Of a DNA stretch of 25,282 nt, positions 11,601-23,600 are shown piece by piece. The DNA comes from Fidelibacterota bacterium (GTDB taxonomy: Bacteria > Fidelibacterota > Marinisomatia > Marinisomatales > S15-B10), in contig JBHIAI010000012.1 of assembly GCA_046861655.1 (NCBI GenBank), positions 1 through 25,282 of the forward strand, read 5' to 3'. Position 1 is the stretch's first letter. Each line of letters begins with the position of its first letter. Made by a program: the position numbers.

Positions 11601-14600
11601 CGCCTGGAAACACCCATCGTGAAGAACCAACTTGGGGATTCCGCAGGTGTGTTCGGTGCGGCCTGCCTGATGTGACCGTGTCAGTGGGCCCCGCCAAGGC
11701 GGGATCTCCGCTTCGCTCCGACAGTTGGCAGTAGGCAGGGGGAAAAGACAGTAGGCAGGGGCAGCGGGCAGTCAGCGGTGGCCAGGAAGATGATGAGGCT
11801 CATCAAACGTCCGCAGTCTAACGCATTACGAATTACGCATTACGAATTACGCATTACGAATTACGCATTACGGATTACGCGTTACGAATCACGAATGACC
11901 TTACTCTAACAGGAGTTTCCCCTCACACACCGCGGTAGACTCATGGAATATCAGACACCACGCACCCTGGTTCGGTGGTCCGTGGTCCACTCCATTCTTC
12001 TCATGGTGACCACTGTGGCAGCTGCCGCCTGGAATCGTCCATCGATTGTGGCTCTATCAGGAACGGGTTCCCTGCTGAGTTTGACCGCCCTTTACTGGAA
12101 ACGGTGGACACCCGATGGAGTGTTTGGACAGGCCAATGTGATGACGCTTATCCGCCTGGCAGGGGTGGGGGTGCTGGTGACCATAGCCGGGTATGGTCCC
12201 ACAGTCGCGATTCCCCCATTAGGGTTCCTTCTTCTGGCCGGCGACGGCGTTGACGGCTGGCTGGCAAGACGACAGAATCAGGCCTCTGTATTTGGTGAGT
12301 ATTTTGATAAAGAAACGGACGCATTTCTTCTTCTTGTGGTATGCCTCTTGCTTACCACTCAAGGTCTGGTAGGGCCGTGGATCCTGGCCGGAGGCCTTCT
12401 CCGCTATCTGTTTGTGTTGACCGGTCGATCCATAAGGGGAAGAAGGCTCGCCGAAAGGAAAACGAGTCGGGGACGAATCATCTATATCGTGGTAACAGGA
12501 CTCCTTCTTCTCTGCTTTCTCCCTTTGCCCTCCCTGCATTTACCCCTTGCCCTCATGGCCCTGACGTTGCTTATTTACTCCTTCGCAGGTGAGTTCTGGC
12601 AAATCATTTCGACCGGATAGACATCGGGTACTAGGGTTCCTCACGGTATCGCTGGCCCACGCCTTCCATGGTCTGGCCCTGTTGAACCTTGTTATCTTCC
12701 TTGAAGTACTTTTCCTGGGAGGGTTCCGGTTTGCCGTGGGCGGCCTCACCGTTTCGGCAACGCACCTTCGGAACCCATTCCTCCTGACTCTCGGTTTTGC
12801 CCTGCTGGCAAAGATTCTCCATCCCTCTTTCGCCCTGGGGAAGTCACCGCTGGGTAGGATCGGAAAATGGGTAGCACGCACATTTCAGAGGCTGAGAGTC
12901 CGTGACGCGACTCCCGTGGCGTTCTGGATAAGCCTGTTGTTTCTGAACAGTCTCCTGTTCCTGCCTTCCCTCCTGGTGGAAATGGACAGGAGTACCCTGA
13001 TCCCTCTGCCGCCTCTTCATGGCGACCGGGGCTGGTACGATACGCTTCTATTCTTCGTTCGAAGGGAAAACAATGACCTCTTCCGGATCTCGGGTGAACT
13101 TCTGGCCATCGCCACTCTGGTGGTGATTGCCAGGAGAATCCGGATCAAAAGGTGGGCGGTACGCTTCGGTCTGGGCCTCTATCTCGTTCTTCTGGCATAC
13201 CAGATTTACGAGTCCTTGTCCCTAAGAATATTCGGCGAGAGGCCCCTTTTCTACAGCGATCTGCTCCTGTTCAAGGATGCGGCTTATCTCGTGGTGGACC
13301 TCTGGTCATCACGCCTGATGGACACCGCGGTCCGGCTTGCGGTGTGGGGTGTTCTGACCGCGACGGCCATCGGTCTGGCATTCAGATTCGTGACCAACCG
13401 GCTTGAAAGGATACACCCGTCCTCCCCTGCGGCCATCTTGGGGATGTTCATCTGGCCCGTGGTCCTTTTTTCCTCCTTCTGGTACGATGCCCACGATTCC
13501 AGACCCACCGTCCGGTGGATCATCCCCAGAATCGTGGAAAACGTGGGCGACTCCGTTCAGGCTCCAAAAAGGTTCCAGACGTTCGAACAAGGCAGACCGC
13601 TACCGTATGCCGAATACTGGTCTGTCCGATTGAACCGGAAGCCGAATCTTTTTCTATTCCTCGTAGAATCTTATGGCAAAGTCCTGGCTGAGAACCCCCG
13701 GCTAAGAGGCAGCTACCAAAGCAAAATGGGGGAGGTCCAGGACCTGCTGACAGACAGCGGGTGGCATGTGGCCACCAATTTCAGCGCGGCTCCCATCAGT
13801 GGGGGAAAGTCATGGCTCAGCATGGGCACCGTTCTGGCGGGCATCGAGGTGAAAAATCAGGCCCTGTATTCCTTTCTGCTCCGATCCATGCCCGATTATC
13901 CCCATCTGGTTCGATTCATGAAATCCCAGGGCTACACGGCCGCCGTCCTCCAGCCCACCATGCGACCGAGACCGGGATTCCCGTTCGAGCGATACGAGTC
14001 CTTCTTTGATTACGACCTCTGGATTTACCAGAGGGATCTGGATTATGCCGGAGATTTCTACGGTTGGGGCATGATTCCAGACCAGTACAGCCTTAACCAT
14101 GCCCACGAGAAGTTCATCCAATCCCTTCGTGAACCCTTCTTCCTGCTCTTCGAAACCGTGTCATCCCACTCCCCCTGGTACGATCTTCCCCCCTATGTTG
14201 ATGACTGGAGACGTCTGGGCGAACCCGGTTTTCACACCCCTGAACACGCCCCCTTCGCCAGCCTGGATAACCACTGGCCGAGAACCTGGAAAAAGCTTTC
14301 TAACCACCTCAAGAAGCAGCTTGGCCTGAAGGATGTGTTTCGCCTGGAAGACTACCTGGCACATATGAATTACCAGATAGACGTTATCATCAACTACATC
14401 CTTGAGAAAGCACCCGAAAACAGTGTATTCATCATCCTGGGGGATCATCAACCTCCCATCATCACGGGCGGATCCCTAGATTTCGAAACTCCGGTACACG
14501 TTATCGCCCGGGATGAGCGTTTTATCCGGTCTCTTGCCAGATACGGTTTCCTCCCGGGGACCCTAAAAGAGCCTACCCTGGGCGGATCCATCCGGCATGA

Positions 14601-20600: not shown

Positions 20601-23600
20601 CGCAGGTACTGGTGATTCTCGAGGTTTGGATCAACCTCGATGGGGACGCGCTCCACCACTCCCACGGATGAACCGTCAAATTCCGACAGTTTCCGCGGAT
20701 TGTTGGTGAGGAGCCGGACGGATTTCACCCCCAGATCCTTCAAGATAGCCAACGCCCCCTTGTAGTCCCTGTGATCCGGCCCGAATCCCAGCTCCAGGTT
20801 CGCCTCCACCGTGTCCATTCCCTGATCCTGAAGTTCATAGGCTCTCAATTTCTCCATCAGTCCGATACCCCGTCCTTCCTGTTTGAGGTAGATGAGGACT
20901 CCCAATCCTTCATCTTGAATGGCTTTCATGGCTTTCCGGAGCTGTTCCCCGCAATCGCATCGCATCGAACCGAACACATCCCCCGTGAGGCACTCGGAAT
21001 GGATTCTGACCAGAACCGAGGCGGCGTTGCGAACCGAACCTTTCACCAGGGCCACGTGTTTCAGGCCTTGTTTCTCATCCTCATAGGCCAGGAGCTTGAA
21101 CTCTCCCAGATGGGTGGGGAGCCTCGTGGTCGCACGTTTTTTCACCATCGCACCGTGTTCCCCCATGTCGTTGGCACTCTTCGCCGGGATTGGTATCCCG
21201 TGACGAAGTTGCTGAAAAGAAATGTAAGATGAACCCTGAGTTTGTGCAATGCCAAAGAAAATCAACCCTGCCATTCTCACGACGTTAAGTGTAAATTGGA
21301 ACTCATGGTACCAGCTATCCAGGTAATGGACCTCAGGAAGACGTACCGCAGTGGGGATTCGAAAGAGAATACGGTGGCTCTACGCGGTATCGACATCACC
21401 ATTGAACCCGGGGAATTCTACGGGCTCTTAGGACCCAACGGTGCGGGCAAAACCACCACCATCGGCATCATTACGGGCCTGGTCAAACTTGAGTCCGGAT
21501 CGGTTTCCGTATTTGGAAAGGACATTGTTAAAGACTACCGGTTCACCCGGTCCCGGATCGGGGTTTCCCCCCAGGAATTCACGTCCGACTGGTTTTTCTC
21601 CATCGAGCGACTCCTGACCTTCCAGGCCGGCTACTACGGTATCCCCACCAGACAGGCCCGTCCCAGGATCGACGAGCTTCTCCACCAGTTCGGGCTGGAG
21701 GACAAACGGAACATGAAAATGCGCCAGCTGTCTGGCGGGATGAAACGGCGGTTCCAGATTACCAAAGCACTGGTGAACGATCCTGATATCCTCATTCTGG
21801 ATGAACCCACTGCAGGGGTGGACGTAGAGCTTCGCCGGATGCTATGGGACTACCTCAGGACCCTGCACCAAGATGGCAAAACTATCCTGCTCACCACCCA
21901 TTACATAGAGGAAGCAGAACTCCTGTGCCAACGGGCGGGCATCATCAACGATGGGAAGATCGTGGCAGAAGGGTCACCGTCGGAGTTGATCAAATCCCTG
22001 GGAAAAGAATGCATCGAAGTTCATCTCTCCGGGTGGGACCCCGGCTATGAAAAACACCTTCAGGAATTCACCTTCGCTTATACACCCGATTCGGGTGGGG
22101 GCCGGCTGGTATTCAGCGTGGAGAGTCCTGAGAAGGAACTATCAAAAATAGTAGAATCCCTCTCCTTCGATGGAATCCACATTCACGAGGTGAAAATCAC
22201 CAAATCCACTCTCGAGGACGTGTTCATGGCCCTGACCGGACGAAGGATTGAGGAGACGTGAGTGTCGTAAGACGCCAACGTATTAAAGCCTCAAACACAA
22301 ACTGGATTGGATTTCGCACCCTGGTCATCAGGGAAATCACCCGGTTTCTCGCCGTTTACCGGCAGACGGTGATACCGGGTCTTGTAACGTCCGCCCTGTA
22401 CATCATCATTTTTGGGCTGACTCTCCAGCGTCGCATCTCAGCCATTGACGGGGTTCCCTACACGATCTACATCCTTCCGGGCCTGGTGATGATGAACGTG
22501 ATCACCAACGCGTATTCAAATACCGCCTCCAGTATTCTTCAGATGAAATTGCTTCAACAGCTCCAGGATATCCTCATTACACCCTTAAGCAACACTGAAC
22601 TGTCCTTATCCTTCATCATCGGTGGGGCGGTCCGCGGATTCATCAACGGTTTGCTGGTTCTGCTTCTGGGAATTCTCATCGTGGGCATGCCCGTAGAACA
22701 CGTGGGGTACGTGTTCCTGTTTGTCGTTCTGGTCTCCTGGGCTTTTTCCAGCGCCGGCCTCATCCTGGGGATTATGGCCGAGAGCTGGGACAACATCGCC
22801 ACCATGGTCAATTTCCTGATCATGCCGCTCATCTTCCTGGGTGGCGTGTTCTATTCCATCCAGATGCTTCCGGGATTCTGGCAAACCCTTTCGCTCCTCA
22901 ATCCCATCTACCATGTGATCAACGGACTCCGGTATTCGGTTCTTGGAGTCGGTGATTCTCCCTTCTGGGTCTCGGTGGGGGCGGCCCTGGCCATGACGGC
23001 CCTGTTTACAGCCATCGGGGTTGCCATGTTTGCCAGGGGATACAAGATCAAGACATAGGAGAGATCCTCCGGTGGGAAACCCGGTCTTTCCGGTCAAAAG
23101 GTTCCGATTCTTGATCGGGATAATCATGTGCGTGACAGTTTCGGTCACCCTGGGCCGCTCCGCCGGAGACGAAGGACCCACCTGGACTCACTACGGCCGG
23201 GCGGGGCCCAACTCGACGACTGGGGAGCTCTGGGCTACTATCGCATCAAAAGGGTCCACAGGAACACGTTCTATGATCTGAGGATCCTGGGAGTCCTTAT
23301 CCCGGAAAAAACCCTGGCCATCCTGCGCTATAAGAACAGCCGCAAGTTCGAATCCCTCCCCCGGTTCTACCAGTTCAGTGTGATATCCCTGAGGCACAGT
23401 TCCACCTCCGATCTGACCATACGTTACCACTACAATCAAGGGGTGGGCGCGTTCCTGTTCAATGTTCCCTCCACCCATATGACCACAGAAGCGGGATTCT
23501 CCTACGATATGTCGGACTACCTGAACAGCACCCGGAAGACATCCTACCTGAAAGGAGGGGTGTTCTGGGATATCGATTGGGGAGACACCCGGCTGGCCCT

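Follow-up and report, generated by a model that had tools for sequence, protein, structure and literature searches.

A PTPS-IV gene cluster in a Fidelibacterota genome proposed to link GTP cyclohydrolase II to envelope lipid or glucan export

A cluster of ten genes in a Fidelibacterota bacterium, lying in the 25,282-nucleotide stretch of DNA analysed here (the window), may encode a single pathway, made up of a cytoplasmic core and an export module that can be exchanged, in which GTP would be converted to a methylated pterin glycoside (X), joined to phosphatidate and passed to an extracytoplasmic acceptor. We hold this reading tentatively: sequence comparison shows the genes, their motifs, their linkage and the distribution of the export modules, and the reaction steps are proposed from these. 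What is new here is an either/or split of export modules among Alphaproteobacteria that carry PTPS-IV, the T-fold protein of the cluster, with 18 genomes having one module and 16 the other.

The genome-wide survey's note had described two units set back to back. All ten genes it listed were found by gene calls and profile searches, with intact catalytic motifs, but the units are convergent, tail to tail, with a 93-bp gap between them. The minus-strand unit encodes GTP cyclohydrolase II (GCH II), a RibD_C reductase, a dehydrogenase, PTPS, a GT4 glycosyltransferase and two methyltransferases (MT2 and MT3), and the plus-strand unit a CDP-alcohol transferase, an LtaS-fold enzyme and a third methyltransferase (MT1). 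The GCH II operon, said to hold two to three methyltransferases, thus keeps two of them, and the third belongs to the lipid unit. The normal riboflavin genes, ribD-ribE-ribBA-ribH, do lie on contig C86 behind an FMN riboswitch as the note had it, and FolE and another PTPS are also encoded in this genome.

For comparison, 80 loci were kept among at least 567 relatives of the PTPS protein at species level, and by their record labels they span at least six phyla, which contradicts the earlier view of a mostly actinobacterial spread. Among the 55 full loci, those flanked by 9 kb or more on each side, the dehydrogenase and the GT4 gene were each found in 53, the CDP-alcohol transferase in 51, GCH II in 41, RibD_C in 30 (missing within 9 kb in the other 25) and the sulfatase-fold gene in 19. 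This linkage, which exceeds chance, together with gene fusions and co-occurrence in Alphaproteobacteria, supports the survey's central proposal of a single GTP-derived pathway tied to lipid head-group enzymes. The convergent layout and a patchy distribution (5 of 301 genomes of the phylum) would also fit two adjacent units with no common function, or mis-binning of the contig, an explanation we regard as barely credible given the fusions, the whole-genome co-occurrence and a gene order identical in four relatives, the last of which argues against mis-binning. The tetranucleotide distance of the contig is ordinary (36 of 125 genome segments are equally far or further), a dispersed repeat on it is common to 12 other contigs, and contigs from two runs bridge the junction (both from one study, and one run may be the source). 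The four relatives, the cluster flanks kept in a same-genus genome (G001) and the grouping of the dehydrogenase with Bacteroidota likewise speak against the actinobacterial origin that had been suggested.

The stand-alone GCH II (20504..21166, minus strand, starting at ATG 21166 or 21148) matches GTP_cyclohydro2 at E 9e-69, scores over the TIGR00505 cut-off and aligns at 56% with the RibBA of the same genome. Equivalents of the three Cys, Tyr105 and Arg128 of E. coli RibA are all aligned, and we take the Cys to be zinc ligands and the other two to keep their roles. By these residues it is a canonical, Tyr-type enzyme, predicted with high confidence to carry out the first step, from GTP to 2,5-diamino-6-ribosylamino-4(3H)-pyrimidinone 5'-phosphate (DARPP). 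A creatininase-family deformylase, which in S. meliloti converts a precursor to DARPP (PMC9478397), is encoded nearby in 28 of 29 loci with a non-Tyr GCH II and in 12 of 37 with the Tyr type. Since the presence of the deformylase tracks this residue, DARPP is the likely entry compound.

The RibD_C protein (19561..20484, minus strand; ORF open to 20679, start inferred; PF01872 E 3e-32) has an extra N-terminal region of about 100 aa, and the reductase was the only domain found. At a site that is Lys in the bifunctional T. maritima RibD and Asn in archaeal reductases it carries His, and this Lys, which presumably goes with a deaminated substrate, is absent from all 78 cluster copies. A bacterial bifunctional RibD was ruled out, as both the deaminase domain and the Lys are missing; the RibD on contig C86 has both. 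A stand-alone reductase without the Lys is typical of ArfC/Rib7, and its 63 bits, where TIGR01508 requires 186, suggest a protein that works like the archaeal and fungal DARPP reductases and does not belong to their family. As a second step, it would with good probability reduce undeaminated DARPP to the ribityl form.

The adjacent MDR dehydrogenase (18579..19556, minus strand; ORF open to 19652, start inferred) is BchC-like, matching TIGR01202 at E 5e-15 but under its cut-off, and weakly matches polyol and hydroxyacyl dehydrogenases. A zinc-dependent alcohol dehydrogenase was rejected because the catalytic-zinc Cys and His ligands are missing; at what we take to be the canonical zinc-ligand motifs it has SPGTE (SxGTE) and KYGY, and SxGTE and KYGY are conserved among homologues. 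We lean slightly towards a third step in which this zinc-free enzyme re-oxidises C2' of the ribityl chain, the 5-amino group closes the 7,8-dihydroneopterin-phosphate ring, and PTPS-IV then trims or rearranges the product. Together the second and third steps would amount to an Amadori rearrangement, which is what would let the 5-amino group close the dihydroneopterin ring, and such a reductase-dehydrogenase route would explain why an enzyme with a pterin-type T-fold lies next to GCH II and not GCH I.

That T-fold protein (18175..18555, minus strand, 126 aa) has no ATG, GTG or TTG at the homologous start, and begins instead at an ATC behind AGGAGG, as it also does in G001. Its best PDB match is SCO6650 (3D7J, E 9e-26, versus 3.5e-5 for QueD), its signature FGKAQ differs by one substitution from the family consensus FGPAQ, and its 111-aa form falls under the TIGR03367 and TIGR00039 cut-offs. 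PTPS-I/QueD, PTPS-II and PTPS-III were rejected, since it reads QRLHGA where CxxxHGH, CxxxxxHGH or ExxHGH would be expected. On its sequence it is assigned to the PTPS-IV subfamily of COG0720, and its GCH (PF00925) and RibD_C neighbours are those of a PTPS-IV neighbourhood. A crystal structure exists for SCO6650/PTPS-IV, and no published reaction or cluster product was found in the literature searched. It counts against the proposed pathway that the subfamily reads HGA at the place of the HGH zinc motif and that this copy carries Lys at a site that is His in at least 90% of 85 homologues.

PTPS-IV lacks the catalytic Cys and the third His of PTPS-I/II, which would suit the same export logic with an X that is not a pterin, being instead a ribitylaminopyrimidine or a lumazine- or purine-like ring on which PTPS-IV performs other chemistry or binding; RibD_C, which looks like a true pyrimidine reductase, would moreover be superfluous for a direct Amadori route. 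We consider this unlikely, because the T-fold Glu positions (TxE, LHESH), whose roles are assumed here, are conserved, and a reductase with a secondary-alcohol dehydrogenase gives a formal route to a 2'-ketone. Coenzyme F420 likewise starts from the ribitylaminopyrimidine branch. One sentence in PMC5041015, marked unpublished and given without data, has PTPS-IV serve F420 synthesis, which seems highly improbable here, as the CofD family was unmatched in all five cluster genomes searched (drafts, this one 93% complete; controls matched 11/14) and F420 synthesis has no use for a lipid or glucan module.

In a fourth step, the GT4 glycosyltransferase (17122..18171, minus strand, PF00534 E 3e-27) and the class I SAM methyltransferases are likely to yield the methylated glycoside X. 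MT2 (15591..16427, minus strand) is weakly CMAS/GPPMT/N-methyltransferase-like and also occurs in a Flavobacteriaceae cluster (L084) and an alphaproteobacterial one (L137); MT3 (16414..17118, minus strand), found by profile search, also occurs in L084 and is fused with MT2 in one ORF in L102 and L103. MT1 (14712..15497, plus strand) overlaps the end of the LtaS-like gene; among the loci compared, the four relatives alone have orthologues of it (at 45-70%). Neither the conserved core methyltransferase (50 of 55 full loci) nor a flippase-like LPG_synthase_TM gene (44 of 55) was matched in this genome, so the product of this copy may be a variant, and no flippase is evident.

The CDP-alcohol phosphatidyltransferase (11943..12620, plus strand, PF01066 E 3e-14) belongs to a cluster-specific subfamily and scores under the PgsA, ClsA and AIP synthase cut-offs. 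It has DGxDGxxAR...G...DxxxD, conserved over 69 homologues, in agreement with the family motif DxxDGxxAR...G...DxxxD. No cytidylyltransferase was found among the recurrent cluster neighbours, and for this reason CDP-diacylglycerol is the probable donor from which the enzyme is proposed to make phosphatidyl-X. The next gene (12589..14715, plus strand, 708 aa, PF00884 E 8e-9) encodes a protein with six predicted N-terminal TM segments, and its model (pLDDT 79) best matches LtaS/LtaP (Z 21.5, rmsd 3.8, 285 aligned), with a lead of only 1.5-2.2 Z over EptC, MCR and GacH, which come next, and of about 3 over true sulfatases. E360, S408, H527, D619 and H620 are invariant in 27 homologues and by their motifs presumably correspond to the catalytic residues of LtaS. 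The membrane domain and the modelled alkaline-phosphatase fold with Glu, Ser/Thr, His and Asp-His place it in the LtaS/OpgB/EptA phosphotransferase class, and we propose that it takes phospho-X off the lipid and either attaches it to an acceptor in the periplasm or at the surface or links it into chains. These fifth and sixth steps together are reasonably probable. The transferase and the LtaS-like domain share one ORF in L040, L042, L060, L070, L086, L092, L098 and also L047; in L084 all genes are on one strand. No recurrent acceptor gene was found beside the LtaS-like gene.

Among 351 Alphaproteobacteria genomes sampled, PTPS-IV is present in 36, the CDP-alcohol transferase in 18, all with PTPS-IV, and the LtaS-like gene in 19, namely the same 18 and one genome outside the 36. 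A dedicated OpgH paralogue occurs in 16 genomes, every one with PTPS-IV and none among the 18, by a cut-off chosen after a score gap was seen, with three queries from cluster genomes and with kin that are not independent. The paralogue has intact GT2 motifs and is distinct from the mdoG-linked OpgH (three of five carriers tested had no MdoG match), and its detached copies adjoin other cluster genes or OpgC. Exceptions are G094, with an other-type OpgH adjoining its CDP-transferase, L073, with OpgH 7.8 kb away, and G240 and G351, with neither module. The two modules seem to be alternative ways of exporting the same product, and the exclusion is not absolute; where the paralogue replaces the fifth and sixth steps, X would start or become part of a beta-1,2-glucan that is threaded across the membrane.

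The lipid head-group link of the survey's note stands, but the lipid is more probably a carrier than the end product, since the LtaS-like gene accompanies the CDP-transferase in 18 of 18 genomes and in 16 others the OpgH paralogue takes the place of the pair. A membrane-anchored, GTP-derived cofactor or head group as the end product, with the LtaS-fold enzyme only trimming, recycling or decorating it, would agree with a flippase-like gene in 44 of 55 loci against an LtaS-like gene in only 19, with the one of five tested genomes that had no LtaS-like match, and with cytochrome b561 and YceI, which recur beside both modules and would fit a lipid-bound redox group. We judge it improbable, since the other four tested genomes carry the LtaS-like gene elsewhere and the OpgH paralogue makes a glucan, not a phospholipid.

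We know of no need of GT2 or LtaS-fold enzymes for a cofactor such as X. The GTP-derived compound could still serve envelope enzymes as a cofactor or signal, with an ordinary lipid as the CDP-transferase product and a plain or phosphoglycerol-decorated glucan as that of the LtaS-like enzyme or OpgH, given OpgH paralogues beside OpgC in four loci, ordinary-type OpgH in 9 of the 18 CDP-transferase genomes versus 27 of 315 PTPS-IV-negative ones, and Agrobacterium pterins that act as periplasmic signals (PMC13259868). This is quite improbable, as the CDP-transferase scores far under the PgsA and ClsA cut-offs and, among the 351 genomes, occurs only with PTPS-IV.

The cluster is common, and the split points a search for the product to both envelope lipid and periplasmic glucan fractions. 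A bolder possibility, which we put forward with reserve, is that bacteria from at least six phyla form a pterin independently of GTP cyclohydrolase I, through a reductase-dehydrogenase shunt that branches from the entry step of riboflavin synthesis, and incorporate it covalently into the envelope, as a phosphatidyl-pterin-glycoside lipid whose head group the LtaS-like enzyme transfers or polymerises, or as a pterin-capped periplasmic glucan made by a dedicated OpgH. If true, this would amount to a second pterin route, a novel lipid head group and envelope decoration of a new kind, and to a new class of lipid and surface polymer; with cytochrome b561 and YceI, it could act as an envelope-bound redox or UV buffer. 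We can only speculate that the product is probably kept in the envelope as a redox or photoprotective group.

Cyanobacterial pterin glycosides are soluble and made through GCH I, and cyanopterin has a methylated sugar and a GT4 transferase. These compounds (cyanopterin, biopterin glucoside) are likewise glycosylated and possibly photoprotective (PMC13259868), but come without a lipid or glucan export module. In Chlamydia, RibA and TrpF make 7,8-dihydroneopterin monophosphate by way of DARPP (PMC4161248), and there too the pterin would derive from the product of GCH II with no need of GCH I, a precedent that makes the claimed novelty of GCH II outside riboflavin synthesis an overstatement; the Amadori step is performed by one isomerase, for folate, in Chlamydia and would here take a reductase and a dehydrogenase. 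The gene set is less novel than claimed as well, being the SCO6650/PTPS-IV neighbourhood of Streptomyces coelicolor, partly in print with the same signature, FG(P/K)AQ, and with PF00925 and PF01872 neighbours (PMC5445326, which labels PF00925 GTP cyclohydrolase I/FolE2, whereas its Pfam name is GTP cyclohydrolase II). The Streptomyces loci examined have Met and a creatininase where this cluster has a Tyr-type GCH II and no deformylase, and this cluster differs further in its ATC start, in having three other methyltransferases and in lacking the core methyltransferase and flippase. Like OpgH/MdoH, the paralogue, which is NF003963-like (NCBIfam), has intact GT2 motifs, often with OpgC adjacent and often without OpgG; it was found only in PTPS-IV genomes (16 of 16). 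The lone OpgH of Caulobacter (PMC11389396) is not placed in the paralogue clade, as C. vibrioides had no NF003963 match at E 1e-180, a threshold that three cluster copies passed. OpgB transfers lipid head groups onto glucans (PMC3818809), and OpgB/OpgE, LtaS, EptA/MCR and GacH have the fold, the N-terminal membrane domain and the metal and nucleophile positions in common with the cluster enzyme, and use a lipid head group as donor, as proposed here. The cluster enzyme, at 7-18% identity to them and in a genome with no OpgH match, differs in its Ser nucleophile and in being paired with a dedicated CDP-alcohol transferase.

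The gene scan of the window placed ten genes at 11943-21166 in two convergent units, rather than back to back as claimed in the genome-wide survey's note. The minus-strand unit carries a GTP cyclohydrolase II (GCH II), a RibD_C-type reductase, an MDR dehydrogenase, a PTPS, a GT4 glycosyltransferase and two methyltransferases, separated by short gaps or overlapping, while the plus-strand unit consists of a CDP-alcohol transferase, a 708-aa sulfatase-fold membrane protein (LtaS-like) and a third methyltransferase, all of which overlap. The ordinary riboflavin operon reported in the note was found behind an FMN riboswitch on contig C86 of the same genome (ribD-ribE-ribBA-ribH), and folE with another PTPS lies on contig C122, so the cluster fills no obvious riboflavin or folate gap; a role in completing folate synthesis was judged unlikely. 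Promoter and terminator scans of the window gave signals no higher than in shuffles, and no Rfam matches or tRNAs were found within it. A 155-aa ORF at 2548-3015 may encode a protein of a four-helix-bundle family, and a 437-aa membrane-type ORF at 9273-10586 had no Pfam match. Immediately upstream of the CDP-transferase, at 11680-11890, lies a dispersed intergenic repeat with tandem ATTACG-type units.

The cluster is native to this genome. The dehydrogenase was found at 53-70% identity in 4 of 60 relatives, all four with the identical ten-gene order, and the ABC and ROK flanks are also kept in the same-genus genome. Across 301 genomes of the phylum, the PTPS was matched only in the window's genome and these four relatives. 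Mis-binning of the contig, a concern of the note, was rejected on the basis of this conserved order, the same-genus flanks, an ordinary tetranucleotide distance and the repeat at 11680-11890, parts of which matched 12 other contigs of the genome; in the sequencing-run contigs compared, parts also matched loose ends that derive from other DNA. The junction between the two units was bridged by contigs of runs X1 and X3, which belong to a single study, X1 possibly being the source. Transfer from Actinomycetota was likewise rejected, given the gene order kept in relatives and a quick dehydrogenase tree (n = 117; rows with short matches or with a stop codon inside the extracted sequence, including loci L102 and L103, left out), in which the window copy fell into a group (SH-aLRT 99) together with two relatives and six Bacteroidota, away from Actinomycetota.

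At least 567 PTPS relatives were present in species genomes, and the best 80 were kept as loci. Among the 55 of these 80 that are flanked by 9 kb or more on each side, the dehydrogenase and GT4 each occurred in 53, the CDP-transferase in 51, a core methyltransferase in 50, a flippase-like LPG_synthase_TM in 44, GCH II in 41, a creatininase-family deformylase gene (creatininase) in 40, RibD_C in 30 and the sulfatase-fold gene in 19. The core methyltransferase, flippase and creatininase are absent from the window, and their seeds had no match anywhere in the genome. In a Bradymonadia contig, the dehydrogenase and PTPS are immediately followed by an NRPS-like gene with carrier and condensation parts (L051:6265-7905). 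Genes for a PfkB kinase and for an inositol-monophosphatase family member occur in or near some clusters, and FkbM methyltransferases come after detached copies of the CDP-transferase and of OpgH (for these genes, loci L109, L110, L044, L063, L069 and L083).

By alignment, the window GCH II retains the counterparts of the functional residues Cys54/65/67, Tyr105 and Arg128 of the E. coli enzyme. Among 66 loci whose flanks extend 8 kb or more (L067, which has a split gene, was dropped), a creatininase lay near 28 of 29 GCH II copies without the tyrosine versus 12 of 37 with it, although the 29 loci are not 29 events because nearly all non-Tyr copies are actinobacterial. Since a creatininase-type enzyme deformylates the precursor to DARPP (2,5-diamino-6-ribosylamino-4(3H)-pyrimidinone 5'-phosphate) in S. 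meliloti (PMC9478397), both GCH II versions point to DARPP as the common entry compound. RibD_C (19561-20484, minus strand) lacks a deaminase domain and has His at the position of T. maritima RibD Lys and archaeal reductase Asn, with Lys in 0 of 78 cluster copies. Its first ~100 aa form an N-terminal domain that matched nothing in Pfam, is common to Bacteroidota copies and is shorter in Proteobacteria; an Atlas search gave no match for it at 0.9 or above. The dehydrogenase is without zinc ligands, and its closest match is BchC. RibD_C would reduce C1' and the dehydrogenase would then oxidise C2', the net result being an Amadori rearrangement, and we infer that this reduction-then-oxidation could be the reason for a pterin-type enzyme beside GCH II.

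The window PTPS matched SCO6650 (3D7J) with an E-value of 9e-26, against no better than 3.5e-5 for QueD, placing it with PTPS-IV, whose signature FGPAQ and neighbours PF00925 and PF01872 are given in PMC5445326. The note's caution that the cluster might already be described thus holds for part of the gene set; no paper on its product was found, most subscription papers and key supplements, which may describe more of the neighbourhood, having been beyond reach. PTPS-IV is said to serve F420 in what PMC5041015 gives as an unpublished statement, a role we rejected as CofD had no match in any of five cluster genomes tested. A table in PMC3610822 gives SCO6652 as strongly upregulated in the later mycelium of S. 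coelicolor; that paper and PMC8305020 offer background context only. The usual Cys and third His are absent from PTPS-IV, which speaks against a pterin-ring route; the order of reduction and oxidation proposed for RibD_C and the dehydrogenase would account for a pterin-type enzyme here, and a non-pterin product, one of the two main rival readings, is judged unlikely.

The PTPS gene starts with ATC behind AGGAGG, a strong Shine-Dalgarno sequence (18553-18570, minus strand), as it does in the same-genus genome (L101:9365-9385), while three other relatives have ATG; the run contigs compared showed no other letter at that position. This start may throttle translation, and gene callers ignoring it shorten the protein to 111 aa. 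At 18528-18530 (minus strand), the window copy has Lys in place of the VRDH His, which is kept in at least 90% of 85 PTPS-IV homologues, including the same-genus copy. On a Streptomyces plasmid (L105:9001-9426), PTPS-IV stands alone outside the usual cluster, adjoining a MEKHLA-domain gene with a very large gene nearby.

For the LtaS-like protein about six TM segments are predicted, and its model has an alkaline-phosphatase fold with LtaS/LtaP as the best match (Z 21.5, rmsd 3.8, 285 aligned), followed by EptC, MCR and GacH (Z 19-20) and sulfatases (about 18). E360, S408, H527, D619 and H620 are invariant across 27 homologues, 428 representatives were found at E 1e-30 or better, and a single ORF holds both this protein and the CDP-transferase in eight loci. 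PDB sequence searches gave one weak match for the LtaS-like profile and nothing under E 0.07 for the CDP-transferase. Four of five non-alphaproteobacterial genomes whose locus was without the LtaS-like gene carry it elsewhere. OpgB, of LtaS-like fold, transfers lipid head groups to periplasmic glucans (PMC3818809). In the window version the CDP-transferase would attach a GTP-derived product, X, to phosphatidate, after which the LtaS-like enzyme would hand phospho-X to an outside acceptor or chain it. No acceptor gene recurred next to detached LtaS-like copies (13 loci, 12 scanned). The other main rival reading, in which the lipid itself is the end product, is likewise judged unlikely.

In annotated plasmids, MdoH/OpgH occupies the place of the CDP-transferase, and among 30 full-flank alphaproteobacterial loci 10 carried the CDP-transferase, 9 MdoH and none both. 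By whole-genome search of 351 alphaproteobacterial genomes, PTPS-IV was present in 36 and the CDP-transferase in 18, all among those 36; the LtaS-like gene was found in the same 18 and in G117. Of the 52 MdoH matches, 16 had E-values of 2e-152 or lower and no other fell below 9e-111; the cut-off was set after this gap was seen. All 16 top genomes were PTPS-IV positive and none was among the 18; the two modules therefore account for 34 of 36 PTPS-IV genomes, a count for which all queries were taken from cluster genomes and in which related genomes are not independent. MdoH carriers are nevertheless dispersed across the dehydrogenase tree. The OpgH paralogue, at 35-36% to the mdoG-linked copy, has intact motifs, and MdoG had no match in three of five carriers tested. 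Detached paralogue copies adjoin RibD_C, FkbM, cytochrome b561, GT4, YceI or OpgC, with one plasmid copy having no annotated cluster gene within 6 kb. Exceptions to the either/or pattern are G094, with a different OpgH adjoining its CDP-transferase, L073, with OpgH 7.8 kb away, and G240 and G351, with neither module. The last two (L145 and L144) are small AT-rich genomes of 1.4-1.6 Mb that keep the whole seven-gene core and possibly produce the compound in free form. Among three Bacteroidota whose loci lack both the LtaS-like gene and the CDP-transferase, one has both elsewhere, one the CDP-transferase only and one neither. The paralogue had no match in the window's genome. In Caulobacter, OpgH stands alone and is essential (PMC11389396; bioRxiv 2022.04.12.488081); its membership of the cluster clade was not supported, as C. 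vibrioides OpgH gave no match at that level (E 1e-180).

Taken as a whole, we tentatively propose, at somewhat below even confidence, that X, the product of the core, is a methylated glycoside whose GTP-derived ring is probably a pterin of the neopterin type, and that X would be lipid-loaded and passed outside in the window version or incorporated by the OpgH paralogue into an exported glucan in other genomes. A covalent envelope pterin is rather doubtful. YceI and cytochrome b561 genes adjoin both the CDP-transferase and OpgH versions (L108, L111, L112, L114, L115, L122, L124, L129, L164, L165 and L179), which hints at a redox role of the product in the periplasm, a speculative suggestion; pterins in the periplasm and photoprotective pterin glycosides are on record (PMC13259868). 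The useful addition is the whole-genome either/or pattern of export modules. Compared with PTPS-IV clusters elsewhere, the window copy has a Tyr-type GCH II, three other methyltransferases, no flippase and an ATC start. Chlamydia converts DARPP to dihydroneopterin monophosphate via one isomerase (PMC4161248), whereas the route proposed for the window would use a reductase and a dehydrogenase.
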